Part shown: positions 8,386 through 55,987 of the stretch, piece after piece | Numbering within the stretch: the stretch's first letter is position 1 | How the letters are laid out: the number at the start of each line of letters is the position of its first letter | IMG/VR virus record: IMGVR_UViG_2061766007_001638 | Length of the DNA: 61,347 nucleotides | Source: an uncultured virus (IMG/VR IMGVR_UViG_2061766007_001638) | Lineage: Duplodnaviria; Heunggongvirae; Uroviricota; Caudoviricetes | Strand: one strand, 5' to 3' | Notes under the pieces: generated by a model | What the model was told of the DNA's origin: nothing | Seen by the model: only the letters and a program-made list of their open reading frames with translations | Databases searched by the model: none | Translations under genes and position numbers: made by a program

Positions 8386-11300
8386 ATGAACGAAGTGTTT
8401 CTTGGCCGTCCGAGCCCTAAGATAGAAGAGTGGATAAAAAACCACAAGCAGAGAACGGTTTTTGTCATGTCGGACGGACAGACCGAGGAGTATTCCGTGG
8501 ATAAAATCAACGTCGAATGGCTCCAATAGAANNNNNNNNNNNNNNNNNNNNTGGCTAAAAAACTTCTCAAGAGTTGAAATTGGTTGGGAGGTTGTCGAAA
8601 TAGGGGAAGGTTCGTTCTAGAACAACACTGCACTTGAAAGCGTAATAATAAGCGGCAATGTAAGAAAAATAGGAACAGACGCTTTCAAGGGGTGTACTTC
8701 TGTAATCGACGTGGTATGCGTGGCCCATCCGAGAACCCTCCAGTGGGACGACGGAAACTGCGACGATTTCAGGCCAAACAGGGAAACGGTGTTGCATGTA
8801 AACTCGAATTTCCTAGACATGTACGTCGGAAAATTTCAGGATAAGGTAAACGTGACGTTCCAGGGGGACGGAGAGTATTCAACTGGAACTTCGGTTAAAT
8901 ACGACGAACTTGCACAGTCGTTCGAAATTCCAATCCAGGACATCGGCCTTGCACCTGGAACCTATTCCGTCGGATATGTTGGAGAAGGAAACCAGANNNN
9001 NNNNNNNNNNNNNNNNNNNAAGCGGTAATATCATGAACAGCATATACTCACTAAACAAATACAGCGTCGTCCCGAACGGGGCATAGTCAATCGGGGTGTT
9101 CGATTCCAATGGAAACCTGAAAAAGACGTTCTCGATAGGAGAATTGAAAAAACAGTCTGGAGAGATAAAGTACAGATTCGGGGTTCTCGCTGATACACAC
9201 CAGAACACGAACCAGCAGACGGAAAACGAGAACCAGACGGACCTCAGGAATGCGCTAAGCGTCCTTTCTGAAAAGGAAGGTGTCGACTTCATATGCATAG
9301 CTGGTGACATAACGAACGACGGATGCAACACTGTTCAACAGATATCTAGCTTTGCGAATGCGATTTCTGCGTCGAACGTAGCTCCGACATACGCAGTCGC
9401 TGGAAACCACGACTGCACGAACAACGGATTCAACAATTTATCATTTGACAACTGGAAGAAGAACACAATAGATTTCATTAAAGGTTCGTACAAGGGAGTT
9501 GATACACCTACAATAACATATTCAGATTCAAAACTTGCATTCTACTTCAAGAAAAACATTCCAGGCACGGAAAACTCAGATTTCTTCATATTCCTAGGAA
9601 TGAATATCTGGAACTTTTCTGGAAACATATTCCTGGACAGCGACATAAATTTCGTTTCGAATATCCTGAAGGGAGAAGCTGCAGATGCAAGGTGCTTCAT
9701 ATTCTTGCACCCGTTCTTCAAGAACAAGGCTGGAGACCTACATGACCTCTATTACAGGAACAATATACTTGGAGGGAATCAAGGCCAGAAGCTGATGAAT
9801 CTCTATTAGACCCATCCGAATACACTATGGTTCAGCGGACACTCGCATTGGAAGCAGTATCTTTCGTTCTAGCCACCTTTAGAGGCAAGTTATGCTGGAA
9901 TATACTCAAACGTCTACAGGGACGAAAATAGGTTAAGCTGCGGATGGACTGTGCATGTCGCTTCGTGTGCATATCCAAGAGACGCACATTATGATGAAAA
10001 CCAACATAAATGGGTAAGCGACGCCGAGCAGGATTGGACAAGCAAGGCCTCCGAAGGAATGGTCGTGGACGTATACGACGACAAAGTGGTCATAAGGGGA
10101 ATCAGTTTCAAGGACGCTTGGGGAGACGGAACTGGAGACCAAGGATACATTACAAGATACTAGCCATGCGGAACGTATGGGCTTTCGGCCCAGTCTGGAA
10201 GTCCAATTCCAATCCCAGATGGTTCTTACACTACAATCAAATTTGTGGATGGAACCAGTTATAAAATCCTCCATAAATAGGACCAGATATCTTTTGATAT
10301 TGGACTTTTAGAGTTAGAAGGAATAACCGACGGATGGACTTATAAACCACGTGAAATAGAATTNNNNNNNNNNNNNNNNAGGTGACTATGTCTGTCAATA
10401 GTGCTATAATTTGACTTCGATATCTATTCCACATGGAGTAATTACTATTTAGTATGGTGCTTTTGCCTATACTGGTCTAACTACGGTGGAAATACCAGAA
10501 TCTATCGTGTATATATGCGGTTCGGCTTTTTCATATTGTGATAATTTAGAGGAAGTCCAACTGAGATGTGGAATACACTCAATTGAAGGAAACGTATTCT
10601 ACAACTGTACTAATTTACGTANNNNNNNNNNTACCACTGGGGTCTCGGAGTCGACGACTATGGAACCCACACCGTGGTCGTGTACTGCGCTGACGGACCG
10701 TTCGTCGTGAACGGAGGGGAAGACAGCAGCGGAAGCGAAAGCGGAAGCGAGGACGTTTCCGAAGATTTTACCTTTGTGGAATACTACGATGGTAATACTT
10801 GGTCTGGGTTGATAGATGGAGAATTGTCGTATGTATCTATACCGAATATATCTTGGGCAAAAAATATCGTCATTGGAAATTTGGTAACTTCGATTTATTA
10901 TGACACGTTTTATGGTTGCTATGAGTTGAGAGAAATTACACTTCCTTATAACATAAATCCCGATAGTATAGACAATAACGCGTTCTACAACTGTCCAAAC
11001 CTTAATGTAGTGAACGCACCTGGAATGTACACGTATGACTTCGAAAACTATAATTACGNNNNNNNNNNAGATGAAAGCTTAACCTACGTTGAGTATTATG
11101 GTGGGGGTTCATGGAGTGAGTATTTAGATGGATATGTTTATGGTTGGACGGACATATATGATTTATCGAATGCCGTAAAAATTAAACTCGGCGATGAAAT
11201 AGCCTTTATTTCTTAGTTTGACAATTCCCCTAACCTAACTGAAATCACCCTTCCAGAATCCCTTGGAGCACTTGGTATAGACAATAACGCGTTCTACAAC

Positions 11301-11453
11301 TGTCCAAACCTTACTGCAGTGAACGCACCTGGAATGTACACGTATGACTTCGAAAACTATAATTACGCTGGCGACTGGGGTCTCGGAGTCGACGACTATG
11401 GAACCCACACCGTGGTCGTGTACTGCGCTGACGGACCGTTCGTCGTGAACTGA
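8386..11453 (+). CDS. Large BspA-type LRR / calcineurin-like metallophosphoesterase fusion (TAG read as sense)
   Basis: In-frame TAGs at 8527, 8618, 9084, 9807, 9870, 10161, 10278, 10399, 10450, 11214; DTH, AGD, GNHD, HP, FSGHSH motifs flanked by IGxxAFxxC repeats; ends TGA. Continuity across N gaps is inferred. Confidence 0.75.
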
Positions 11454-11473
11454 GGGGAAGACAGCAGCGGAAG
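10636..11473 (+). repeat. Near-exact intragenic direct repeats
   Basis: 10636-10735 vs 11374-11473 (99/100 identical); 10966-11058 vs 11275-11367 (91/93 identical). Confidence 0.9.
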
Positions 11474-11525
11474 AGGGAAACATACATGATTGAAATTTGA
11501 TATTGATTCTATTCCAACATGTGAT

Positions 11526-11560
11526 AAAACCAGGCTGTATTAATTCAGCCTGGTTTTTAT
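11526..11560. terminator. Bidirectional terminator between convergent genes
   Basis: AAAACCAGGCTG / CAGCCTGGTTTT stem. Confidence 0.85.
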
Positions 11561-11601
11561 TTCAACTAAATAAGAAGATTATTCTCACGTAGCGTCAAAG
11601 T

Positions 11602-12272
11602 TTAAATCTACAAGTAACTTTCAATCGACTTGAACCCTGTTGGAACTTTGTTGAATGTTCTGTTTTTCCTTGACGGGAACGGTCCGACGTCCACAAATAA
11701 GTATCCATTTGTATTGCTGTTAGTCCTCGCCGTTTTTGGTGAATTATACTATATAAACAAGGGATAATTTGATACATACGTCCTGAAAAACTTATATGAA
11801 TATGAATCTGTTATATGGTTCAGTTCATGATGGTAGTCGATAAATTTGTCGTATGCGTCTGAAAAAACCATGTTGCACGCACTTCCCCATACTGTGTTTC
11901 CGTCTTCGAGTCTTATGAATGGGCTTTTTGACATGTCAAGTATGTTCTTGTAGGAACATTTAAGGTTTGTCCAGTTCAGGCATATTATTTCCGCGTCTTC
12001 TGGTATGTTTGTCCGTACGAATTCCAGTTTTTCCTTTATTCCGTCGCATGGATACGCGTCATCTTCAAATATCACTACAAATGGCCATCCTCTCGCTTTC
12101 GCCTCTTTCACGCATTTCAGATGAGATGCTGTAATTCTCATCCATGTCTTCGAGAGCTTCCTGTCCGTACAGCCAGCTATCTTTTCTGGGATTTCAAGAA
12201 AATTGGCTTCAAACAACCTTTTGAAAATATTTAGTCTATCTTCGTTGACCGAGATTACAAACGAGTGCTTTA
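11602..12272 (-). CDS. Glycosyltransferase family 25-like (start masked; TAG read-through)
   Basis: FVISV...R, ASH, IFEDDA motifs; PLFI(TAG 11749) matches the GT25 P-x-x-x-Q motif; second TAG 11608; ends TAA. Confidence 0.75.
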
Positions 12273-12386
12273 NNNNNNNNNNNNNNNNNNNNNNNNNNNN
12301 NNNNNNNNNNNNNNNNNNNNNNNNNNNNNNNNNNNNNNNNNNNNNNNNNNNNNNNNNNNNNNNNNNNNNNNNNNNNNNNNNNNNNN

Positions 12387-13284
12387 AAACCTTGATTTTT
12401 CATTGAACTTGTTTTCGAAAAAATCCAGCATCTGTCTTAGTATTTCATTAATTTCAACGACATTGTCGGAGTCGTTTATGCAAACCATTTTTTGTTTCAT
12501 CGTCTATAGAACGTTTTTCATGTAGCCAAAGTCATTTCCANNNNNNNNNNNNNNNNNNNNNNNNNNNNNNNNNNNNNNNNNNNNNNNNNNNNNNNNNNNN
12601 NNNNAATAAATCGGAAAAAGGTACTGAGTATAGTTGAACGGCTCCCTGAATTTCGTGCATGAATCGATTATCGTGTCTCCAGCTTTCTCGTGTATCTCGT
12701 CGAAAACGCTTTTTAANNNNNNNNNNNNNNNNNNNNNNNNNNNNNNNNNNNNNNNNNNNNNNNNNNNNNNNNNNNNNNNNNNNNNNNNNNNNNNNTCTAT
12801 ATGTGTTTCTTGCAGACGTCCTTTTTTTGAAACTGTATATCGGCCTTCCGAGAAAATCAAAAAAATCCTAACAATCGGTCATTCTCATAACCAGTATGTC
12901 GTCATTACTGTATATGAAATGTTCAGATAATCCTTCTATCCTATTAAGAAACATCTCTATTGTTGTGCTGTTGAATGTCGGAACGAGAACTTCTGGGATT
13001 ATTTCCTCGTGAAGCACGACGTGGACGTTTTCCCTGTCTATGAAGTCGGGGACCTGCTCTATGTTAGACACCACCAAATGCACTTTCCTGACAAATGGCA
13101 TGTACTTGTCAACACCCCTCAAAATGTATTTTAACAATCCCCAACTTCTATATCTTGATGGAGAATAGCATCCAGGATACTTAGAGATTTTCTCTAACCA
13201 CACTGGGTCTCTGTCGTCAACGTATGTTATGACAAAGTCAACTGGAAAATCACTAAAAACTTGTATTTGGTTTTTTAAATTCAT
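12387..13284 (-). CDS. Stealth family (hexose-1-phosphoryltransferase-like) protein (TAG read-through; 3' end masked)
   Basis: PVDFVITYVD, LKYILRGV..YMPFVR, PTFNS..IE, HFIYSNDD, KFR, MVCIND, KSRF motifs; TAGs at 12868 and 12504 fall between them. Confidence 0.85.
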
Positions 13285-13511
13285 TTTTATTGNNNNNNNN
13301 NNNNNNNNNNNNNNNNNNNNNNNNNNNNNNNNNNNNNNNNNNNNNNNNNNNNNNNNNNNNNNNNNNNNNNNNNNNNNNNNNNNNNNNNNNNNNNNNNNNN
13401 NNNNNNNNNNNNNNTTATGAATCTGGTTATTTTCATTTTTTATACTCCTGTTTACTTGTATTATTTACAGTTTAACAAATCCATGTATAATATGATACAC
13501 AAGGATGTTAC

Positions 13512-13721
13512 CTGAAAATAAGAATCAGACAAGAAGGTCTTGGATACTGCGTGGACAGATACGTCGGATACATGTGGAAGAGATGGCTTCCAAAAGCAAT
13601 AGGCGTAATACGGGGGGAGGAGATTTACAACTACTACAAAACGCCAAAACAGGCAGAACGCGCAGCAAGGGCTGAGAAGAAAAGAATGGAAAACGACAAG
13701 GACATAATCATGGAGATTTGA
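13512..13721 (+). CDS. Hypothetical 69-aa protein with probable CTG start
   Basis: TATAAT 13486, AAGGA SD, then CTG AAA ATA AGA... open to TGA; not in the ORF track. Confidence 0.4.
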   Translation: MKIRIRQEGLGYCVDRYVGYMWKRWLPKAIGVIRGEEIYNYYKTPKQAERAARAEKKRMENDKDIIMEI

Positions 13722-13742
13722 CATATGGGGTAAATATCCCCA

Positions 13743-14129
13743 ATGGCAAACACTACCGAACGCCACAAGCAGAAGAAGAGCCAAAAGCGGAAAGACCGCC
13801 AGGAAAGGCGAAGACAGAAACAACTCAGCAAGATTGCTGAAGAAGCTGACAACGTGGGGGATGTGCGGCAAGACGGTCGTGTCGTCCAGGAGGGGGAACT
13901 CCCAAAGAAGAAAAAGTCTATCCCTGGACTCCTTGCTAAGAACTGCGACAACATAATGAGGTGGCTCAGGGACTATCTTCTCATGTTCATGAAATGCGAC
14001 GACGAAGGCTCCGAGTACATACGGAAAATGCCAATAGAGCAGCACAGGCAGCTAATCCAGGACTACGTCGACATACGTCTCATGATTCGAGAGATAGAAG
14101 ATATCAGAAATCCAGGGAAAACCGCGTAA
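13743..14129 (+). CDS. Hypothetical basic protein
   Basis: GTAAATA 13730-13736, ATG 6 nt later. Confidence 0.7.
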   Translation: MANTTERHKQKKSQKRKDRQERRRQKQLSKIAEEADNVGDVRQDGRVVQEGELPKKKKSIPGLLAKNCDNIMRWLRDYLLMFMKCDDEGSEYIRKMPIEQHRQLIQDYVDIRLMIREIEDIRNPGKTA

Positions 14130-14160
14130 ATATCGTCATACCCACAAAAGGAGGACGCCA

Positions 14161-14805
14161 ATGAAAAACCCAATCAAGACCATTGGAATGCTTTCCCTCG
14201 GCCTTTTTGCGACATTTGCCTCTGCAAAGGACGTATTCGACTTCAAGATGACCTTGAAAGTCCCGAGAGTATACAACAACGAGCGCTCGCTCGGCTTCAG
14301 GAAGTACCAGAAACAGATTATAAAGGGAGAGATGGTGGTTGACTACGATTCGGATGGAAACATAAAGGAAATCCAGTTCAGGAACGTATTCAACAGGACC
14401 CACAAGACATCAAACGGGAAAAACGTCACTTACGACGCAAAAATTGACGGAGATGCATTTTATCCGAGGTTCAACGCGATAGGAGACAACAAAAAGAGGA
14501 AGTTCAACGTACCAAGCGTATGTTTTTTCTTTGTCGCGGAGCCTTCATACAACATAGGATAGCTGAACGAGGACAACGCCCTATACCTGATGGTGTCTGG
14601 AAGCGGTCTGCTGCATCCAAAAGGATACATAAGGAAACTTGGCGGAAACGTTTCTGGAACGATTGGATGCGGATGCTCCGCATACGGACACATATCCCCG
14701 ACTAGGGTTCTCTGGTTCTGGGGGGCCTCTTCGCAAGTTGACGACGTCGCTGCGGTCTACGGAAAGTGGAGCGCAAAGTTCAACAGGAAAAAATCCGACA
14801 GGTAA
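14161..14805 (+). CDS. Secreted protein with signal peptide (TAG read-through at 14560)
   Basis: Signal peptide ...FATFASA; ORFs 14161-14562 and 14590-14805 are in one frame; AGGAGG SD; GTAAATA 14126. Confidence 0.75.
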
Positions 14806-14827
14806 ATATCCAAAAAGAAAATAGAAT

Positions 14828-17058
14828 ATGGGAAGCGCATTTTTAGGGAACACCTCTTCCAATATGAAGAGATGGATTGAGACGCACCGTCCAGAGACAC
14901 TTTTCTGCATGTCCGACGGAACGAGGGAGTATTACGACATACGTGGGTGCGTTGACGACGGCTGGCTACTGGAAAACGGATTCAAAGACGGTCAATCTTG
15001 GACAAAAGACATAAAAAGAGTCGTCATTGGACTGAATTCGTCTGGAATTGGTGGATTTGCATTCTCAAATTGCCAAAGTCTGGAGGACTTTTATGCATCT
15101 GACAATGCGGTGGAATTTGGAAATGGTGCGCTAAGCGGATGCGTTCGTCTTTCGTCTGCTGTGCTTCCAGAAGAAACAAAAACGATAAGCGAATCTCTTT
15201 TCTCTGGATGTACTGGACTTACGTGGTTTAAAATTCCAGGTAAAACTGAAATAATAGGGAAAACGTCATTTCAGGGATGTTCAAATCTTGAAAATGTCAG
15301 TATCCCAGACAGCGTTAAATCAATCCAAAATGGAGCATTCAGGGACTGTAACGAAAACCTTTATGACATTCAGACTTTGCCTGGGGTCAAGCTTGTTGAC
15401 GGATGGGCGTGTGAAATCGTGTACCAGGATTTTCAACATGGGGCATTGGATTTGACCGATGTACGAGGAATCTGCGAGATGGCGTTCTATGGATGCGATA
15501 AGATAGAACACGCGGAAATTCCAGGGAAAATTCATGAAATTCCTCATCAATCATTTGCGTCATGTCCGTAGATTTCATCGGTTTTGATGCACGACGGGGT
15601 TCAGAAAATAGGAAATTACGCTTTCATGGGTTGTGGAAACCTGATTGAAGTAAATCTTCCAGACAGCGTATTGGAAATCGGAATGGGTGCATTCCAGGGT
15701 TGCTCCAAACTTTCATCTATCCATTTAGGAAACGGCCTGACTTCAATTGGAAAAAATTCATTCAATGGTTGCAGCGAACTTTTATACGACGTACAGACGA
15801 TACAAAACATAATCATAGTCGATGGGTGGGTTATCGGCTATGAAAACGGATTTCCATCATAGTTAGACTTATCCCGTGCAAGGGGGATTGCCAATGNNNN
15901 NNNNNNTAGCAAATAACCCTTCCAGAATCAATGTCGAAAATCGGGGACGGAGAGTTTATGTTTTGTCAATCCCTTGAATCGGTTTCAATTCCTACAACCG
16001 TAAATGAAATAGGACATGAGTCTTTTGCGATGTGCGATTCTCTTGAAAGCATCACCATTCCAGAAAACGTAGAAACTATAGGAAACAGGGCATTTTACGG
16101 ATGTACTGGAATGACATCCATAGAAATATAGAATGAAGACGTCGTCATATCAGACAATTCGTTCAGGGGGTGTTTTTCCGTCGTTATCGTGGATATTCCG
16201 AATGGAATAAGACAGATAGGACAGTGCGCTTTTCAATTCGACGCCGACGGACAGGAGATAATGTTCACAAACCAGGACATGCAGACTATAAGGGAATGGT
16301 TCGACAACGGGTATTTTGGAATGGGCTGGGGCCCCGTCACCATTAACTGCTATGACGGTTCGCTATATTGCGTATACGGGTCCGNNNNNNNNNNNNNNNN
16401 NNNNNNNTCCAAATAACGGGGAGAGTCAGTCATATGACATAATTGGAGAACTTGCGGCAGGGTACAACGGTTATACAACAAAGAACATCTATAAAGTTGA
16501 AATAGGCTCTGGCGTCACTAAAGTTGCCAACAGGGCATTTGAGAGGAATACAAGTGTAAACACACTGTCAAGCGTAGTGATTTATGGAGTCCCGACAATA
16601 GGAAATTTTTCTTTCAAGTGCCCATCAATCAAAAACGTCCTAATGACGGAAGGTGTAAAGAACATAGGAAAGCAGGCTTTCAGGGAAACGGCGATTGAAC
16701 AGATAACGATTCCAAGGAGCGTGGTCAAAATAGAAGATTCCGCATTCATATTCTGTTACGACTTGAAAAACGTCAACATTCTCGGGGATGAACTTGAAAT
16801 TGAACAGGGTGCGTTTTGGGGATGCAACAAAATGGAAATGGTTTCGATTCCAAACGGAAACATAACCATAGGGGGAAGCGCATTTGAATTCGATAAAGAG
16901 GAAGAAGACCCTCCAGTATATTTCAAAAACCAGNNNNNNNNNNNNNNNNNGGGTACTTCGGTGATTGGGGAAATATGACCGTCTAGTGCACAGATGGAAA
17001 ACTTTCATGTGTTTATAGTTATTCAGACAACCAATGGCACATAACCCCAATTTAGTAA
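14828..17058 (+). CDS. BspA-type leucine-rich repeat protein (TAG read-through)
   Basis: Many IPxxVxxIGxxAFxxC repeats; in-frame TAGs 15569, 15860, 16129, 16984, 17053; ends TAA; N-terminus paralogous to the 8386 gene. Confidence 0.8.
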
Positions 17059-22398: not shown

Positions 22399-24447
22399 TT
22401 ACCAACTTGGTCCATCGAACGGGTCGTCCTCGAATCCGAACAGATTGTCGATTCCGTCGGTTCCGTTTGACCAGCTGCTCCACATGACGTTTAGCTGGGT
22501 CCTGTCATATTGATTCTGATTGTTGTTTCCAGCGGAAAACATCGGGTCATGCAAGTAATTGTCATGTCGAATCCCTCCGACGACGTCGTTTCCAGTGTTT
22601 CCAATCCTTTCCGTCGTACGCCCTCCGACCTGTTCTCTCATGAGACGTATAAGCTCGTCTTCAGACAGGACATTTTTCTTCATGATTCCGTCTATTTCCG
22701 TTTTTCCGTCAGTTTCCGCCTTAATCTGCTGTTTTACGAGCTGTTGGCGTTCCTGGACTTTTCTTTCGTGTTCACGGAGGAATTCATTGTTGTTCTTCAT
22801 CTTGTAGAACTGGAAATCCCTAACCTGCACGCTTTCCTATATTCTCTGAATGTCTGACGGGGCGTAGTCGTAATACGGAGACAGTGTCTTCGGGAATACC
22901 ATTCCCGTGCTCGACTCGAACGTGCTGTCCACGTTGAAGTACCTTTCCACGTTTTCTGGGTTCAGAATCCAGTTCATCCAGATGAACGACATGATATGGT
23001 CGTCGTATGCCCCTTTTATCGCGGAATATACGGTATGAACCTTCAGGTCTTTCTTTATGAAAGACGAAAACTCGTCTATAAGCTCATAGTCGTAAAGCTC
23101 ATATCCGAATCCCACGGTAGTCATCATGTCCCTTGTCCAGAGACACGCTCTCGTCTTCAGTTGCCAATTCGAATCTATTCCGCATCCACCCTTGTTCATC
23201 ATGACAAAGTTCTCATACGCATAAGTAACCCTGAGCTGTTCTATGAATCCGAGGGATATTCCGTTCGATTCACATGCGATGAACGGATTCGCGTAAAGCT
23301 TCAATATTTCCTTCGCAACATACGCGAACTCGAGAATCGATGTCTTGTTGTCTGAAAACTTGCAGCACATCCTTATGTTGGAGAGGTCTGTGACATCCCA
23401 AATATAAAGGACAGACGAGTCCTTTCCGACTCCCTCTGCCACATCCCCAGACGCAAGATATGTCTTTTTGGGGTCGAAGTCGTGCCACATCGTGAACTGA
23501 TATGTCTTCTTTCCGTCTGGAGACNNNNNNNNNNNNNNNNNTAATGTATTCCCCTTGTCTTGAATTCCGTGAGCTGTATCTTATGCCTGTCTGCAGTTTC
23601 GTCTGAAATCAGCTTTACCGTAGTAATATCATCGAGAAATTGATTGTCGAACTCCTGTGCAAATCTCGTCGCACCAATCGATTGTATCTGAATCTTCTTC
23701 CACTGTTCGTCTCTTCCTGGAACCTGCCACCAGTACATTATGAACGGCTTCCATCCGTCCGCGTTGTCTGGGTCATTTTTGTTATTGGCCTTTTTCCACA
23801 AGTCATAATAGAGATTATGCTTTCCGTTCGGCGTCGAGACGATTATCACCTTTCCGTTCTTCGAGGCGGAAATAACTGGATATACTGCGGCAAAAAGGGA
23901 ATCTGCTATGTTTTGTGGAACAAAACTAAACTCATCAAGAATCAACACAGAACAAGATTGTCCACGAGCTCCTTGAGCAGAACAAGAAAATCCCATTATA
24001 GTGGAACGATTCGAAAATTTTATTGATGATTTGTTAAACTCGGCGCAACCTGGTTTCAACCACGTAGGAAGATACGAATATCCAAGTTTGATTCTCTCGA
24101 GAAGTTCAAGTGCCGTTTGTTCGCGCTATGCAAGCATCATCACTCTTTTATCGGAATGGAAACACGTCAACCAGAGAACGTATATGCAATACGATGTACT
24201 TTTTCCGAGCTGTCTGGATGAACACACAATTGCTCTGTTCTCATTCACCATAAATTTTAAAAGTTCCTTCTGAACATCATATGGTTTTATTATCTTCAAG
24301 CCTTCTGGTGTTTGTATCCTATAGTAGTTTTCAGCGAAATAGACTATATCCTCTCGACATCTCTTTATTTCTTTTAGCCTTTCTATGAGCATGTCTTTTG
24401 AAACATACTCGACATGATTTGGCTTTTTTACTGTAGCAAGCTCTTTG
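22399..24447 (-). CDS. terL: Terminase large subunit, T4 gp17-like (start masked; TAG read-through at 24126 and 22837)
   Basis: DIVYFAENY, SSRQLGKST, LILDEFSF, IVSTPNG, RFAQEF, GDVAEGVGKDSS, ESN, YDDHIMS; MLA(TAG)REQTALELLERIK..Y..LP.WLKPG is continuous. Confidence 0.92.
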
Positions 24448-24488
24448 NNNNNNNNNNNNNNNNNNNNNNNNNNNNNNNNNNNNNNNNN

Positions 24489-25232
24489 ATCCACAACCTC
24501 TCATACACGCATGTAAAATCATGTCACTTCTTATTCCAAGGCATTTACCAGCTTCTGTTGAATTTTCCCATTCTTTTATAATCTGTTCGGTATTCGCATC
24601 AATTTGAAGCACCTTTCTAATATCTCTTCTCGGTGATGGCATTCCAATTCTAGACTTACTTATTTTTTCTTTGGTTTCTTCACTTAATTTTTTACCTTTA
24701 TTGCTCTCACTTATCTTTTTCTTTGTTTCCTCACTATGGTGCTTTCCATAAAATGGACTGTTTTCACCAGTCATAGCCAATTTTAATTTTTGTCTTGTTT
24801 CTTCTGACACAATTTTTCCTTTATTTGCGATACTTATTTTTCTTTTGTGCTCATCTGAAAGATGTTTTCCCCAGTTTGGATTATCTTTTCCCTTTCTCCC
24901 GTAAAATGGATGTTTTTCACCAGCCATTTTTCCCTTTAATGCTTCGCTTATTTTTCGCTTTGTTTCCTCTGTCTTTGGAATACCTTTGCTCCAAGACGGC
25001 TTTCCTTTCTTTTTTTCACTCATTCTTAATCTTGTTTCTTCTGAATATATTCCATGTTTTCCCTTGTTCCAAGGTATATAATTTCTTTTTGCCATTCTCA
25101 TTTTTTGTCTGGACCCATCACTATACCAAGATTTTTGATTCCCACCAGTTTTTCGATTGTAAGTATCGTCTCGTTTGACAAATTCTTCATTCACTATTTG
25201 TTGTTTTCGAATATCTAATTCATATCCATCAT
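24489..25232 (-). CDS. Homing endonuclease with NUMOD3 repeats and NUMOD1-like tail (probably GIY-YIG; N-terminus masked)
   Basis: YN.KTGG followed by repeated HSEETKxKIS and C-terminal VLQID...IIKEW.NS.EAGK.LG. Confidence 0.8.
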
Positions 25233-25570
25233 NNNNNNNNNNNNNNNNNNNNNNNNNNNNNNNNNNNNNNNNNNNNNNNNNNNNNNNNNNNNNNNNNNNN
25301 NNNNNNNNNNNNNNNNNNNNNNNNNNNNNNNNNNNNNNNNNNNNNNNNNNNNNNNNNNNNNNNNNNNNNNNNNNNNNNNNNNNNNNNNNNNNNNNNNNNN
25401 NNNNNNNNNNNNNNNNNNNNNNNNNNNNNNNNNNNNNNNNNNNNNNNNNNNNNNNNNNNNNNNNNNNNNNNNNNNNNNNNNNNNNNNNNNNNNNNNNNNN
25501 NNNNNNNNNNNNNNNNNNNNNNNNNNNNNNNNNNNNNNNNNNNNNNNNNNNNNNNNNNNNNNNNNNNNNG

Positions 25571-26076
25571 AAAAGAAGATGGTTCCAGCTATGTCCGTCT
25601 TCGAGGATTCCAAGTATTTTCCCCAGATAGTCGAGGACAGGGACTACGACTTGTTCGGACTTTTCGGGAACTCTTGCAGGTCTTTGTATCCAGAGCTCGA
25701 CTGCTTCGAGCCTGAGAACGACTTCCCGAGCTTCATGAAGAAGATGACTATCTATAAGAGGATTAACATAGGAGACTACCACACCCGCAGATGGTGCTAT
25801 GCGGACAAGCTCGAGGCTTCCCTCAAGGAATACAAGGAAAACCTTTTGGACCCGAAGAAATGGCTTGCCAGATACGAAGACAGAAACGACGACTTTCTCC
25901 TCGATGTCGTTCAAAAGAAGGTTTCCGCCAAGAAGTGGAAAGAAGCCCATCAATATCTAGTGGCCTCAATTGACGAAGTCCTGAAGAAAATCGAAGACGT
26001 AAAGGCATGGATTGGGGACTATTCCGACATCCTTGACCCCGACTATATTGTGTTCGTCACGTGGATGGACAGCTGA
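25571..26076 (+). CDS. Hypothetical protein (5' end masked)
   Basis: Contains RDYDLFGLFGN, ends IVFVTWMDS. Confidence 0.6.
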
Positions 26077-42355: not shown

Positions 42356-42358
42356 AAA

Positions 42359-42922
42359 ATGAACAACAGACAAGACAATAACAACGGGGGCTCCAAGTCG
42401 CGCGAGCCCGTAACCTACACAGACTACAACATATTCAGGGGAAACGTCCGACTCGTAGGAGAGGGACAGTCCCCAATTATAATCGACAGGGACGAAGCCA
42501 TAGAAATGGCGAAATCCAGGGGAATGAACCTCGTCCAAATAGCGTACAACAAGAACGAAAACCCGCGTTCCGTGTGCAGGATAATGGACTATTCCAAGTT
42601 CAAGTACGAACAGAAAAAAAGGGAAAAGGAATCGAAGAGGCGTCAGAGAGAGGCGATGACCGAAGTAAAGGAAATCAAGTTCTCAATACGAATCGACGAC
42701 GGGGACAAAAACACAAAGATACACAAGGTAAGGGAGCTTCTTTCGGAAGGCGACAAGGTCAGGCTTACGATACGGCTTCTCAGGAGGGAGATATCCAAGA
42801 CCGACTTCGCAAAGGTCGTGATGGACCAGATTATTTCAGAACTCTCGGACGTTGCGGAAATAGACCAGCCGTCTTCTTTGTGCGGAAGTAACTTTTCATG
42901 CATTATAAGAAAGAAGGGATAA
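42359..42922 (+). CDS. infC: Translation initiation factor IF-3
   Basis: VRLVG, A..MA...GMNLVQI, VCRIMDYSKFKYEQKK, VKEIKF...ID..D..TK, GDKVRLTI. Confidence 0.93.
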   Translation: MNNRQDNNNGGSKSREPVTYTDYNIFRGNVRLVGEGQSPIIIDRDEAIEMAKSRGMNLVQIAYNKNENPRSVCRIMDYSKFKYEQKKREKESKRRQREAMTEVKEIKFSIRIDDGDKNTKIHKVRELLSEGDKVRLTIRLLRREISKTDFAKVVMDQIISELSDVAEIDQPSSLCGSNFSCIIRKKG

Positions 42923-50523: not shown

Positions 50524-51327
50524 TCATTGTAGTCCGAACCTTGACTTGTCCAATGCGTAGTTGGCCTGCTGCTCGGCCAAAGTGAGCTACCTGTTGTAAA
50601 GCCTGATGCAGTAGACATCGCCTATTATTCCACTTGAAGATGGATATGGGTTTCCGACAAACTGCCTTATGGGCGAAATCGCTCCCTGTGGAATAGTAGC
50701 GTCGCCCTCAGCAATCCAGGATGTCACGACCCACTATGTTCCGTTTCTGACAATCCTCACAGGCGTTGAACCTCTGTCGTAGTTGCTGTCTGTTGTCGGA
50801 TATACCACGGAGAAGCCCCAAGTTCCAGTTGGCATTGAAGTTCCGCTCTGTCCAGACGGTTCAGCATATCCAGTAGAGAACATCCAGCCGCGCTTTCCAT
50901 CATTAACGTCCCAGGCGAGCATCCTTCTTGTCATCTGCCAGGTGTTGCTCAAAAATCTCGTTCCAAACGTGAATGCCCTGATTCTGCTGTTGTTAGTGGT
51001 CACGTTGTACGAGTCTTCCACCTTGAAACAGACTTCCATCGTCTGAATGTTCTCGCGCGGAATGGCGTTCTCGCATATAGCCCTTGAACTGAACGTGTCA
51101 AGGTGGAATGAGTTGCTTTTCCAGGAGCACTGGTCAAGTGTTGTGAAGTCATATGTGCTTCCTAAACTTCCGAGATTCTTCCACGTCGGCGCGCTCGCGT
51201 TGTGAATTCCGCCACCAGCGTTCCACTCGCCGTCATATTGCGCTATGAGTCCGTCGGTGACGTAGGGATTTGTCCAACCGCCAGCCTTCTGCACCCAGAA
51301 AAAAATATTCTTACCAAGAAGGCTCAT
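50524..51327 (-). CDS. Tail-associated module, LamG/ConA-like (type B; TAG read-through at 50734 and 50587)
   Basis: PYVTDGLIAQYDGEWNAG...WKNL; C-terminal CIRLYNR(TAG)LTLAEQQANYALDKSRF matches paralog CIRIYSRILSEDEIKKNHEIDKIRF. Confidence 0.75.
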
Positions 51328-51403
51328 GCCGACTCCTTACACTCCAAACGGCGATAAGAGGAAAAGAAGAGAGAGAGAGAGAGATGTCGAATATCTTAAA
51401 CAT
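51311..51403 (-). CDS. 30-aa leader mini-ORF containing a (TC)8 tract
   Basis: GGGGAGG SD 5 nt before ATG 51403; MFKIFDISLSLSSFPLIAVWSVRSRHEPSW*. Confidence 0.55.
   Translation of the reverse strand: MFKIFDISLSLSSFPLIAVWSVRSRHEPSW
51369..51384. repeat. (GA)8 / (TC)8 microsatellite
   Basis: Read directly. Confidence 0.95.
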
Positions 51404-51424
51404 TTATACCTCCCCATTCATATT

Positions 51425-52092
51425 TTAGGTTTTGTCCGACCACGTGAACGCGCCCGTGCCTTGGTTGCGGTAAAGCCCGTCTGTGCGCAGAGAGCCGTCT
51501 GGGTCCATTCCAACGGTCGGGTTCACTCGGTCGTACNNNNNNNNNNNNNNNNTTTGTTCGTGAAGCGGACGGGCACGAGGTCGCGAACCAGCTCTCCGCC
51601 TATCGTCCACATCTTGCAGTATTTCACCTGTCTGACGCCACCAGTGTCAATATGCTGGCTCTTGAACAACCAGAATCCAGAATTGTCGTGCAGTCCAAGT
51701 ACATTGAGCGCAGTGGGCCTAAGTTTCACGCCGTCGAAGTACGCACCATCGTTCAAAAGCTGCGCCACATGGAAATTGGTGTCATAGTTGATGTTCGCCC
51801 AATAGCTTGAATTATCGGGTCCTGCTCCGCATCTGTACCCATTGTAATACCCGACCAGATACAGTCTGGCGCTCGGATTGTTGTTCCAGTACCCGAACAC
51901 CCACGTGTCGTTCGACGGCCTTGACGTGTACCGATACTCAATCTCGACCTGGTAGCCCGTATACTGCGCGGGCGGCACACATCCAGTGTCGATATACTGT
52001 GTTCCCGTGGACTCCAGGTACTCCACCTCCGCGTCGTAGGGGAGTCTTTTAATTGGAGAGGACTGGTAGAAGTTTTTAGAAGCGATTAACAT
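51425..52092 (-). CDS. Tail-associated module (type A)
   Basis: LPYDAEVEYLESTGTQYIDTG...LVRDLVPVRF...YDRV...NQGTGAF. Confidence 0.75.
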
Positions 52093-52102
52093 TTACTACC
52101 TC

Positions 52103-52780
52103 TCATGATATATTGAACCTGATTTTGTCTATTTCATGGTTCTTCTTTATTTCATCTTCGGACAATATTCTTGAATATATCCTTATGCAGTGGGCGNNNN
52201 NNNNNNNCTGTTCACGCGTGTCTCCGAGTATGCCAATCATTCCCTCTTTAAAGCCCCACGTATCAGAAGAGTCTTTTACCATGAGCCCAGAGTTCTTGTA
52301 ACCACGCTGAACAGTAGATGTCAAGGTTGCGGTTTCATTTGGTTTCATCTTGTATAAAGAATTTATAGCGAAATAATTCGACCATTCTGGACTATTTCCT
52401 TGTTTAAGAACGATACATGGGTACAGATTTGTATATAATATCGGTCCTACCACGAGAAGGGCCTGTGAACCTCCGTATATATCCGACGGCATTGTTATGC
52501 ACATTTCAAGTGTTTCCAGCTTTACTCCGCTGTAGTTCATTACGGCAACTGGCTTCATGTTTGAATTTGATTTGATTCTCCCAACTCCGTTTTTTGTCAA
52601 TACTGAAACCGCGCTTCTTAACGATAGGTCATTTCCGTTCCCAGAGGAATCAATCCATTTATACTGCTCTTTGCCTCGGTTGATTCCATCCCACAATGCG
52701 AAAATACCGTCTTGAACGTAGTCTTTTTCAGTTGGTGTAGATTTTCCATGGAAAAACGTGTTTCTCGAGGCTACAATCAT
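52103..52780 (-). CDS. Tail-associated module, LamG/ConA-like (type B)
   Basis: DYVQDGIFALWDGI..G...W.D.SGNGNDL...CIRIYSRILS..EI..N..ID..RF; GGAGGTG SD. Confidence 0.75.
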   Translation of the reverse strand: MIVASRNTFFHGKSTPTEKDYVQDGIFALWDGINRGKEQYKWIDSSGNGNDLSLRSAVSVLTKNGVGRIKSNSNMKPVAVMNYSGVKLETLEMCITMPSDIYGGSQALLVVGPILYTNLYPCIVLKQGNSPEWSNYFAINSLYKMKPNETATLTSTVQRGYKNSGLMVKDSSDTWGFKEGMIGILGDTREQXXXXAHCIRIYSRILSEDEIKKNHEIDKIRFNIS

Positions 52781-52800
52781 CTCGTCACCTCCGAAACTCT

Positions 52801-52819
52801 AGAGAGAGAGAGAGAGAGA
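52801..52819. repeat. (AG)n / (CT)n microsatellite, at least 19 nt, cut off by Ns
   Basis: Read directly. Confidence 0.95.
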
Positions 52820-52877
52820 NNNNNNNNNNNNNNNNNNNNNNNNNNNNNNNNNNNNNNNNNNNNNNNNNNNNNNNNNN

Positions 52878-53494
52878 TTGTCTTCGCTATTCCAGTTTTC
52901 TCTCGGATTTTTTTTTTGGACTGAATCATAAAATACGTGTGCGTTGTCCGAGATTCGTACACATGGATATAAATGGGCGATTTCGATTCCGTCTCTTGTA
53001 ATAATGGTTTCTCCCAACCCAGTTCCTTTGCATACTGACCTGTTGACGCCGTTNNNNNNNNNNNNNNNNCCGTTGAAACCAGAATCACTTGTCGCTGTTC
53101 TTACGGTTCCATTCCAGTCAATCGTCGTTTTAGTGGAGGAAACATCGCATTTCATAATGTTTCCTCCAGCTCCAGTCCCAATCGTAGACCAATACTATCN
53201 NNNNNNNNNNNNNNNNNNNNNNNNNNNNNNNNNNNNNNCAGCAAAACCGTATCCAGTCCACGTCCCAGTTTCAAAAAACGCCCCAAACCAACACCAACTA
53301 CTGTAGCTGCTAGAAGAATACCCGTCTGTTTCAAGGTGCCAATTTCCGTCGTTGTATACGCCAGTTTGGTACATGCATAGAGTCTAAGTTGGATTTCCGT
53401 TATCGTCCTTTACTATATACTTGACCCTCCTGTATCCAGAAGGAACAGGTTCACTGGTTCCAAAAGAGAAAATCTTCCTTGAAGCTATCAACAT
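52878..53494 (-). CDS. Tail-associated module (type A-like; TAG at 53384; 3' end masked)
   Basis: MLIASRKIFSFG...PSGYRRVKYI...; C-terminal IAHLYPCVRISD...FYDSV. Confidence 0.65.
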
Positions 53495-53498
53495 GTCA

Positions 53499-54029
53499 TC
53501 AGATTTCAGTTGGTATCATATCCAAGAATGAATCCACTTCTTCCCTTGTCTTTCCAAGAGCGACTGCAGCTCCGTCCAATATGGAATTCCATCTTTCTTC
53601 CGTTGGATATCCCTCCTTGACGTAATTGCAGTCTGCAAGGGCTTTCCAGGCGCTATAATCTGGCTTTAGTTCAATCGAGGAAAGATACTGCTCTGCGACA
53701 GATAGGATATGCGCGTCGGCAAGTGCCCCCTTTACCGAAAGCCTTGTCCATATTCTTGGAGGAGGCGGAGGAACTTCCCTTGTCTCATATGTCCTTTTCC
53801 ACTTGTCTCCGTCGCGCTCCCATCCAACGGCAACTGCGTAATATCCATCTTCCGTTTCTGGCGGCACTTCATATATTTCAAGATATGGCTGAAGTCCTAG
53901 CTTCTGTCGTTCTACGTTTACAACCTGGAAATGCTCTTCAACTGGATTGCACACAAGGGAATTTCCTATCCTCACGGCAGAAGGTGCCTGTACCATGATT
54001 CCGTTTTCTAATGTTCCGTACTTCTTCAT
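53499..54029 (-). CDS. Hypothetical protein, possibly tail fibre assembly-related
   Basis: MKKYGTLENG...AP...NP...GW...YE...PPPPR; lies between the fibre-like gene and the module cassette. Confidence 0.55.
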   Translation of the reverse strand: MKKYGTLENGIMVQAPSAVRIGNSLVCNPVEEHFQVVNVERQKLGLQPYLEIYEVPPETEDGYYAVAVGWERDGDKWKRTYETREVPPPPPRIWTRLSVKGALADAHILSVAEQYLSSIELKPDYSAWKALADCNYVKEGYPTEERWNSILDGAAVALGKTREEVDSFLDMIPTEI

Positions 54030-54047
54030 TTATGAAATTCCTTTCCG

Positions 54048-54911
54048 TTATCCGTTGTTGGATGGAGGTGCTACCTCCACCATCTGTTTAAGAGACACTG
54101 CGAACCAGCCCTGCTTCATTTCGGTAAACGAATACGACCACGTTCCAGAAAGAGATGGAACTGGAAACTGTGCAGTTGACGGGTCTGAACCGTCTACGTA
54201 GAAATGAACCTCTTCCTGTCCGCTCGGAGTAAACGTTATTAACCCTCCGAAATCCTATACGGTCTGTGGAATGTCCAATGTTACGATGAAATCCCTTACT
54301 CTATTTCCAGGCGGAGGAAACGATAACTGCGTTGCTGCGTCTATCGAGAGGTAGTTTACCGCCATGTCCTCAATTTGACCAGATTGAATCTCGTTAAAAA
54401 CGTACTTCGTGTCTTCTACGTCTGCCTTTGTCGAAAGTTCGTCGCTAAGTCCGAAAAGCTGCCCAAGGTTCACTGCGTCGGAAATGTCCGTTCCATCCTG
54501 TACGTTCTTCACCTGCATTCCGTACATGTTATTGTATTCGGATGATACGACGTACACTACGTTGCTTATTGCTCCTTTTTCGAGTATTTTATAATATTCT
54601 GTGTCCGAGACATGCAAGAAACTTACGTCGCTTTTGTAACCGTCGACTGAAATCTGGGGAACCGATGAGACATCGGCCTTTGAAGATATCTCCGCGTTCA
54701 CGTAATCGCTTAAACCAGAGACGTCTTTGTAGCTTATTATCTATCCAGATGTTATCTCGTTCAATGGAAGATTAGTCTCCGTAAAAGTATTTGTGGNNNN
54801 NNNNNNNNNNNNATATATGTTCTCGTCGTCTCCCCTTATTTTCTTGTTGTTGTCGGAATAATATCTTATAAGATTCATTCCGTCTAGTGTCACGTTTTCT
54901 GAACTTATCAT
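54048..54911 (-). CDS. Tail fibre-like protein (TAG read-through at 54741 and 54255)
   Basis: KAD repeats, VKNVQDG...DAVNLGQL (YadA-stalk-like), C-terminal LSFPPP..VRDFIV.L...YSFTE...WFAVS. Confidence 0.6.
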
Positions 54912-54912
54912 G

Positions 54913-55987
54913 TTAAACTCCAATTATGTGGTTTTTGAGCGCNNNNNNNNNNNNNNNNNNNNNNNNNNNNNNNNNNNNNNNNNNNNNNNNNNNNNNNNNN
55001 NNNNNNNNNNNNNNNNNNNNNNNNNNNNNNNNNNNNNNNNNNNNNNNNNNNNNNNNAATCCAATTCCATGAGATTGACACAATCCTAGAACGCGTATTTT
55101 CCTATGTATCTCACATAAGGAACGGAAATCCTGATTTTCCTGCACTGTTTCTGGAACGCCGTATCTCCAATCGATATTAGACGATTGTTCGAATCGAATA
55201 TGGTGGCGAATCCATGGGTCTGCAGGAACTCGTCTGAAACGTCGCGTCCTATAATGAAGCTTCCGCTTCCCTGGTTCTCGAGAAGATTCTTCCCCACCTT
55301 GTCGTAAAGCCCGCCTTCGTCTTCCCCTTGTCCATTTGTAAACTGGACTGGAATAGCGTCGAATAGCAACTAGCCATTCTCGTCGTATATCTAGAAACTT
55401 TTGAGCTTGGCGGAACCCATTAGACTGTCGTCTCCATATCCACTCTGGATGAATATTTTGTAGTTCTCCCCGTCTATTTTGACAGTTGATTCGTCCTGGC
55501 TCGTCCCTACGGTTGTTCCGTCCACCTTTGAGGATTTGTTTCCACTGAAAGTCTGTGATTCCACTTCAACGAAAACATCTCCAGTGGTGTCTAGCCCAAG
55601 TCCTTCCGCTGGAGTGATTCGGTTTACCGTACATTGCTCGAAAATGTATCCATCGGACCCGTTGGCCCTCACGTCGTAGATAAAGTTTTCGCTTCCAGCA
55701 ATTTCCCCAGAACCGTATGCATTTTCTCCAACAAAAGCGAAGGTTGCGACGAATCTCTTTCCTCCGCCAGAAATGGGTATTCCAGTGTCAATCCACTGCA
55801 ATCCAGTGGATTGAATGTAGCTGACCTCTAAATCATATGGAACATTTCCTCCGCCCCCAGCTGGCGCTGCATAGTAAATCGGACAGTGTTCGTTCACCAT
55901 CTGCGCAACCTGGAACTGACAATATCCCTGTATTACGTTGCACCAATATGGGTTGTCAGACGGATTATATTCGCAAAAAGCTTCCAT
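54913..55987 (-). CDS. Type A module + BspA-type LRR protein (TAG read-through at 55391, 55370, 55085; end approximate)
   Basis: VPYDLEVSYIQSTGLQWIDTG...KSF*IYDENG*LLFDAIPV...LYDKV...NQGSGSF...IGKYAF*DC; GTAAATA 6 nt before ATG. Confidence 0.7.

Follow-up and report, generated by a model that had tools for sequence, protein, structure and literature searches.

A short shared N-terminal peptide as a candidate docking tag for interchangeable lectin-like proteins beside a phage fibre gene

Why should several small proteins with different bodies, encoded one after another beside a fibre gene, all begin with much the same nine or ten residues? The question is raised by a cassette in a 61,347-base stretch of DNA, referred to here as the window (it contains 76 masked N runs), from an uncultured tailed virus, IMG/VR record IMGVR_UViG_2061766007_001638. 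When TAG is read as glutamine (genetic code 15), seven genes are found on the minus strand from 55987 to 50524, and four of these, termed A1, B1, A2 and B2, start with MLIASRKIF, MIVASRNTFF, MLIASKNFY and MSLLGKNIFF, respectively. Both the starts and the peptides agree with a preliminary description made from the letters alone, which had proposed that the peptide docks interchangeable receptor-binding modules onto a common site, perhaps the C-terminal domain of the neighbouring fibre-like protein. The answer favoured here, with a probability of about 0.5, is a related one, namely that the peptide is a docking tag by which interchangeable lectins would be mounted at the end of the fibre, in a socket that the fibre C-terminal domain, a 176-residue protein (p176) encoded beside it, or the two together would provide.

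The shared motif is more than chance. Among the 520 methionine positions of the window that are followed by at least 100 open codons, a strict expression for the motif picks out five, three of which are cassette genes and two of which are unrelated; the start of B2, the weakest copy, is missed by the same regular expression. The four peptides lie at 53468..53494 (A1), 52751..52780 (B1), 52066..52092 (A2) and 51298..51327 (B2), all on the minus strand and all N-terminal. Over the first nine codons A1, B1 and A2 are 56–67% identical as DNA, with 2–4 synonymous codon changes per pair, and the regions upstream are unrelated, so the peptide appears to be conserved at the protein level and not as a DNA repeat. 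Ribosome-binding sites precede the peptide ATG in the window genes, such as the GGAGG ahead of B1. By inspection, none of the window peptides has a hydrophobic core or more than four consecutive hydrophobic residues ahead of the LamG fold, and they do not look like Sec or Tat signal peptides, an alternative that the preliminary description had itself raised.

Conservation extends to homologs of both kinds of body. By the strict expression the peptide stands at the extreme N-terminus of 74 of 120 single-domain type-A homologs and of 13 of 31 type-B homologs and, when inspected by eye, many of the 40 type-A homologs classed as having none were seen to carry variants of it. Identical peptides are found on A and B proteins, for example on P0166 and P0007/P0010, and when the A profile is aligned to the B profile the alignment is confined to 19 peptide columns (E 3.3e-4). 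The peptide also seems to lie outside the fold that follows it. In the AlphaFold2 model of P0184, a type-A homolog, residues 1–10 have a predicted local distance difference test score (pLDDT) of 63 and every structural alignment begins at residues 22–24, while in multi-repeat type-A proteins the domain begins behind the peptide and the internal repeats are without it. The same peptide heads two BspA-type leucine-rich-repeat (LRR) proteins in relatives, and a different, longer N-terminus precedes the type-A domain in five loci, as classed by regular expression.

The bodies behind the peptide are of two types. B1 (52103..52780, minus strand; 225 amino acids, 11 N masked) and B2 (50524..51327, minus strand; 267 amino acids, with two in-frame TAGs) match a type-B hidden Markov model (HMM) at 5.9e-46 and 2.3e-75. 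When B1 and B2 themselves are compared with Pfam, nothing is matched at E≤1. Of the 32 relatives of B2 in the databases, nine carry a precomputed PF13385 assignment, and the two type-B homologs that were rescanned, P0006 (30.5 bits) and P0016 (28.5 bits), exceed the cut-off of 27.6 for this family, Laminin_G_3. The B profile also matches the CBM40 lectin domain of NanA with an E-value of 4.6e-6. By these profile matches, B1 and B2 probably belong to a LamG/ConA-like lectin family.

For type A, an HMM was built from A2 (51425..52092, minus strand) and its homologs. The family is a large one, with 2,437 relatives of A2 at E≤1e-3 among 1.84 billion representatives. Among 150 matches listed, 14 have a single matched stretch and the others are proteins of 300–3,651 amino acids with 2–8 copies; one multi-copy relative also has BspA LRRs and Listeria–Bacteroides repeats. 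No Pfam, NCBIfam or PHROG model covers the family, which is named here and was previously unannotated. The fold was approached through P0184, a complete protein 78% identical to A2 and used as a stand-in for it, whose model, made with a 52-sequence alignment, has a pLDDT of 91.8. Its closest structural matches are LamG modules: PAPP-A (Z 12.4 over 171 residues, root-mean-square deviation 3.5), BACOVA_03559 (4dqa; Z 11.0) and laminin G (Z about 10.5); Foldseek E-values are only 1e-3 to 1e-2. On this modelling, type A is a LamG-like fold. A and B are thus both LamG/ConA-like in predicted fold, yet they cannot be aligned by sequence. That the A and B proteins of the window may bind sugars, as LamG/ConA-like lectins do, is suggested by the fold class alone.

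The fibre-like gene (54048..54911, minus strand) encodes 287 amino acids and contains two in-frame TAGs. Residues 133–165 of this protein match the Pfam family PF05662, YadA_stalk (E 1.5e-6), a match that is marginal at 28.9 bits against a cut-off of 28.4. The conserved C-terminal domain (about residues 183–287; 54051..54365, minus strand), delimited by alignment and HMM, is a candidate socket for the peptide, with whose subtype it covaries, as described below; a sequence comparison of this domain with the PDB returned no solved relative. The next gene, p176 (53499..54029, minus strand), encodes an N-terminal beta domain and a C-terminal helical domain joined by an invariant PPPPPR, and its AlphaFold2 model has a pLDDT of 93.9. 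Neither the fibre nor p176 showed a T4gp10-like domain when scanned with Pfam and PHROGs, nor was gp10 among the PDB sequence matches, although no HHpred-type search against T4 gp10 was made.

When viral contigs were scanned with the B2 sequence alone no relative was found; the type-B alignment as query gave 16 loci. Blast with the window proteins placed a p176 homolog beside the B gene in 10 of these 16, and residues 178–284 of the fibre match the C-terminal ends of open reading frames (ORFs) of 430–840 amino acids directly upstream of A or B genes in five, a similar C-terminal end being recognisable by eye in four more. Viral loci seeded with p176 contain a match to the fibre C-domain HMM in 16 of 17 cases, the seventeenth being without upstream DNA, and all 17 contain an A or B gene; eight of the 17 contigs had already been found with type B. 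This is the comparison of cassette content between relatives that the preliminary description had suggested. The A2 query on its own gave 79 metagenome loci. When the A2-seeded genes are restricted to those that have 2.5 kb or more of DNA upstream, a fibre C-domain accompanies 14 of 16 peptide-bearing genes as against 2 of 12 with other N-termini (Fisher p 3.3e-4), and among genes with flanks p176 accompanies 11 of 13 peptide-bearing genes as against 5 of 15 others (p 0.009); it counts against these comparisons that the regular-expression classes of N-terminus are imperfect, the 'signal' class (n=8) including three leaderless proteins and being omitted from the Fisher tests.

By sequence, then, the fibre C-domain, the tagged lectin or lectins and p176 constitute a conserved three-gene module. 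In one relative (L010) the module lies directly downstream of baseplate-wedge and tail-fibre PHROG matches, in another (L007) the fibre itself matches tail-fibre PHROGs, and in a third (L016) the module comes after a major-head-protein-like gene. Homologs of p176 occur also in metagenome-assembled genomes titled uncultured Lentisphaerae bacterium and Verrucomicrobia bacterium, and one type-A homolog is listed from a Kiritimatiellae metagenome-assembled genome.

If the peptide plugs into a socket, the two might be expected to vary together, and the similarity between peptides does follow that between fibre C-domains, with a Mantel r of 0.60 over 15 loci and 0.53 over 34 non-duplicate loci (p 2e-4 in both). 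Reading from the listing, the ..R/K..FF subtype, which includes the window variants, is found in 13 of 13 loci of the fibre cluster to which the window belongs, the LINLRNALM subtype in seven of eight loci of a second fibre cluster, and three smaller clusters each have a subtype of their own. Single-linkage clustering of the peptide subtypes merged nearly all of them into one cluster and was not informative. The peptide subtype tracks the fibre C-domain subtype regardless of lectin type.

Taken together, these observations suggest that the region encodes the distal part of a tail fibre, where the host is recognised, in a TAG-recoded, jumbo-like phage. The fibre protein, with a trimeric-stalk-like segment, ends in the conserved domain of about 105 amino acids, and its gene lies beside those for p176 and for several small single-domain proteins with a lectin-like LamG fold. 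A peptide of about 10–20 residues ahead of the fold would plug any one of these lectins into the same site on the fibre tip, a socket supplied by the C-terminal domain of the fibre, the N-domain of p176 or both. Several binding specificities, perhaps as many as four or five in the phage of the window, could in this way be displayed and swapped with the fibre unchanged. The proposal implies that the lectins physically dock, that they are present in the virion and that they bind carbohydrate, and it leaves p176 as an assembly factor or adaptor, a role that we infer from its position and conservation.

There are precedents for such an arrangement. In the branched receptor-binding protein systems of phages K1E/K1-5/SP6 and of the Klebsiella phages KP32/KP34, a conserved N-terminal peptide of the second receptor-binding protein docks on a T4gp10-like branching domain (PMC6872550), an interaction that has been validated by engineering (PMC13352976). 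In these systems the peptide is of 7–11 residues or longer, is group-specific and is needed for incorporation, and several receptor-binding proteins are carried per virion (PMC6872550, PMC13352976). The likeness lies in a short conserved peptide that varies between groups and sits on interchangeable bodies encoded beside a primary fibre or adaptor. The differences are that the socket there is a T4gp10-like domain whereas the candidate here, the fibre C-terminal domain and/or p176, is not recognisably T4gp10-like; that the bodies there are large trimeric tailspikes or depolymerases whereas here they are single LamG-fold domains of about 200–270 amino acids, or LRR proteins; that some relatives here add export leaders; and that docking here is a proposal from sequence.

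A second point of comparison is the gp38 adhesin of T-even phages, which is encoded by a small gene beside the distal fibre gene, sits with its N-terminal part on the fibre tip and sets the host range. In gp38 an entire N-terminal domain serves for attachment and the receptor-binding body is rich in glycine, and there is one adhesin per phage. The present system differs in having a short peptide, LamG-fold bodies and tandem paralogs, and shows no sequence or fold relation to gp38. A search of the literature found no description of this lectin and peptide family, which does not prove that none is in print.

Were the docking tag confirmed, it would represent a compact plug-and-socket form of host recognition, with small lectin modules in place of large tailspikes, in phages whose hosts belong to a little-studied group of bacteria, and the docking-peptide principle would reach beyond enterobacterial podophages. 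The module of fibre C-domain, tagged lectin and p176 could also be used for finding receptor-binding genes in metagenomic phages.

Several findings weigh against this reading. The covariation is confounded by the relatedness of the loci, the LINLRNALM subtype occurs also with an unrelated fibre C-domain cluster, and one locus (L025) has two peptide subtypes beside one fibre, with L026 a further exception. The cassette lies in the window downstream of DNA-metabolism genes on its own strand, and a tail-tube-like gene adjoins it solely in convergent orientation. In addition, the body of A1 (52878..53494, minus strand, its end falling in the masked DNA 52820-52877) is divergent: in an hhalign comparison with the A profile the alignment is limited to the first 29 residues, with a probability of 8.8%, about 20 A1 residues being masked. 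The alternating order A, B, A, B given in the preliminary description therefore stands for B1, A2 and B2, while A1 is not demonstrably type A. Two further difficulties, the identity of the partner and the occurrence of export leaders, each lead to a different explanation of the peptide.

As regards the partner, peptide similarity correlates with that of the p176 N-domain (r 0.55) nearly as well as with that of the fibre, and since similarity in the fibre C-domain itself correlates with similarity in the p176 N-domain at r 0.84, the two are inseparable as socket candidates. It could be, then, that p176 is the true partner, an adaptor or retained chaperone that recognises the peptide and either bridges the lectins to the fibre or aids folding or assembly. 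In the counts given above, 10 of the 16 loci seeded with type B have p176 next to genes that bear the peptide, 11 of 13 A-seeded genes with flanks are accompanied by it, and in a further locus, L106, a leader-bearing A gene comes after it. The nearest named clusters to p176 in the Atlas are tail-fibre-assembly families, at 0.80–0.85, which is under the tool's own bar and provides leads only. Like the Tfa, Caudo_TAP, DUF4376 and XkdW assembly proteins, which are of about 170–200 amino acids, p176 has two domains and a gene beside the fibre gene.

Unlike those proteins, however, it is without a Pfam, PDB sequence or fold match: none of 10 family members matches any Pfam family at E≤5, including Caudo_TAP_N, DUF4376 and XkdW, no PDB relative is found by sequence, and a Foldseek search of the PDB with the whole model gives nothing at E≤1e-3, the best VIA match (Z 5.0) covering the helical half only. 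When the fibre is allowed for, the partial correlation of the p176 N-domain with the peptide falls to 0.07; that of the fibre itself is only 0.32 and that of the p176 C-domain 0.30, and variants of the p176 C-domain do not track the peptide subtypes. On balance p176 as the sole partner is considered rather unlikely.

The second difficulty comes from relatives in which a Sec/Tat-like leader, identified by eye from the sequence, stands directly ahead of the peptide. Such leaders are found in tandem arrays of A, B and LRR genes in L002 (up to nine genes) and L004, as well as in about eight of the 120 type-A homologs and in LRR proteins. A ribosome-binding site precedes the leader ATG in L004 and the peptide ATG in L001, and for this reason both the leader-bearing and the leaderless forms seem real. 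The leader-bearing proteins of L002 and L004 are, from their sequences, probably exported, and docking onto virions in the cytoplasm does not explain why they should be. The docking proposal of the preliminary description has held up in part: its sequence-level expectations of conservation, a position outside the fold, co-occurrence and covariation were each borne out, while the export leaders of some relatives are unaccounted for. With or without a leader, the peptide would be at or near the mature N-terminus, which suits a tag needing a free end.

The two arrays, L002:4217-12946 and L004:7055-13219, each comprise 7–9 paralogous genes on phage-like contigs. L002 (251 kb) encodes ThyX, RusA and a head-completion gene, and L004 encodes terminase and HNH genes, its array being flanked by an HNH/RRXRR gene and an IS605-type transposase. 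Neither a fibre C-domain nor p176 was found within 10 kb of either array; a protein upstream of the L002 array was considered as a fibre C-domain carrier and L002:6108-6776 as p176-like, and neither was supported, the hhalign probabilities being 0.5% and 4.6%. A separate observation concerns the spacer before some leaderless B genes (L001:9926-9997, L008 and L032; P0008 and P0013), which is open in frame and encodes a hydrophobic, signal-like peptide that terminates in a translated Shine–Dalgarno sequence. These B genes may have two alternative starts, giving an exported and a cytoplasmic form.

Such leaders would be natural if the lectins were not virion components at all, being instead exported or surface proteins of the infection, with the peptide as a mature N-terminus for sorting, anchoring or processing. 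The type-A proteins with several repeats, of which some also carry BspA LRR and Listeria–Bacteroides repeats, do resemble surface proteins. Nevertheless, the window genes and most homologs begin at the peptide, with no hydrophobic core and with a ribosome-binding site before the peptide ATG, the leaderless forms are linked to fibre genes in tail or baseplate blocks, and the leader calls rest on reading by eye. A purely non-virion role is regarded as unlikely.

A broader scheme would join the docking tag to the leaders. In this scheme phages of Lentisphaerae, Kiritimatiellae and Verrucomicrobia use one tag, about 12 residues long, as a general plug on one fibre socket for at least three bodies, the two LamG-like families and the BspA LRRs, and in jumbo relatives the modules leave the cytoplasm before they are attached. 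Attachment would be to a phage scaffold on the surface of the infected cell, or to virions at or after lysis, which would amount to an undescribed way of arming or re-arming fibres. This scheme is distinctly doubtful as it stands; the relatives would in any event offer a natural example of one tag combined with export leaders.

An external partner would not be needed if the peptide acted within its own protein or in oligomerisation, for instance as a short helix capping the LamG fold or holding lectin subunits in a bundle. The AlphaFold2 model has a short helix at residues 5–12 and the peptide is amphipathic in many subtypes. Set against this are the pLDDT of 63 and the unpacked state of the helix in the model, the lack of the peptide from internal repeats of multi-domain proteins, its presence on LRR proteins and on two families related by no more than a broad fold class, and a subtype that tracks the neighbouring fibre rather than the domain, all of which make such a role very unlikely. 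It is highly improbable that the common start is a side effect of the exchange of cassettes or of signals for translation (a recombination handle or initiation region), for although the genes are tightly packed, with starts overlapping conserved 3' ends of preceding genes in relatives, lectin types swapped behind one start and (TC)n tracts upstream of both B genes, the first 27 nucleotides are only 56–67% identical with synonymous changes and unrelated upstream DNA, the peptide is kept between a recoded phage of 42% GC and quite different relatives, and it is also found internally, behind leaders.

The docking tag thus remains the preferred reading, and the rest of the cassette can be described beside it. 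The first gene (54908..55987, minus strand) is a code-15 ORF with three in-frame TAGs, whose C-terminal part is masked (N run 54943-55056). It had been described as a fusion of the type-A domain to LRRs that has no shared motif. The type-A HMM finds stretches at residues 50–78 and 155–252, behind a 48-residue Cys-rich N-terminus without the shared peptide, and the LRR part appears as a match to LRR_5 (BspA) at E 2.8e-4 that is under the cut-off (21.2 bits against 27.7).

Some oddities of the four tagged genes are also worth recording. The coding 3' end of A1 holds a run of ten A, 52920-52932 on the minus strand, with the next 58 bases masked; this could reflect slippage or a sequencing error, and the frame one base off is slightly nearer to the usual type-A C-terminus. 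A1 and B1 share one frame across the masked DNA and may form a fused A1–B1 protein. Fused A–B proteins, in which one N-terminus serves two domains, exist in relatives, among them P0002, the closest relative of B2. In A2 the frame that encodes the first 180 amino acids is not the one that encodes the conserved last 36 (51425-51535), the change occurring across a 16-N run, 51537-51552, and representing either a frameshift or a mask that is not length-preserving. A (TC)9 tract (52802..52819, minus strand) lies about 20 nucleotides upstream of the B1 start, beside a masked run, and a (TC)8 tract (51369..51384, minus strand) about 40 nucleotides upstream of the B2 start. These are the only two such sites in the window (seven overlapping matches, 0.04 expected) and none is found in 37 loci; the tracts might be slippage-prone or regulatory elements.

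The reading of TAG as glutamine, on which these gene models depend, is supported by alignment, because the two in-frame TAGs of B2 align with glutamine in homologs and the conserved LamG C-terminus lies past them. Among the three closest full-length homologs, glutamine stands opposite one TAG in one (P0005) and opposite the other in two (P0003 and P0005). The type-A domain of the first cassette gene likewise runs across two in-frame TAGs. Long ORFs sum to 122,691 nucleotides under this reading as against 84,831 under code 11, other reassignments lengthening frames too, and a tRNA scan of the window found none, hence no suppressor tRNA there.

A PHROGs scan of eight pieces of the cassette matched no family, NCBIfam likewise gave none, and a DNA similarity search of the cassette against 50,697 phage records yielded no match. 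Elsewhere the window encodes an RNA ligase, a clamp loader, an exonuclease and the tail-tube-like protein, along with numerous BspA-type LRR ORFs. Several of the latter lie at 8438-16975 on the plus strand (phrog_35892, phrog_18805), some with near-identical internal repeats, and would make up a second block of putative binding proteins, none of which bears the shared peptide. The large terminase is broken up by a homing-endonuclease region and lies in two pieces within 22402-25965 on the minus strand, with PHROG matches on 23376-24500 and 22402-23580 and a homing-endonuclease-like ORF and a 337-N mask upstream. Finally, an ORF at 42356-42919 on the plus strand matches phrog_9787, a translation initiation factor, with an E-value of 2.5e-39, which is noteworthy in a phage with a recoded stop codon.

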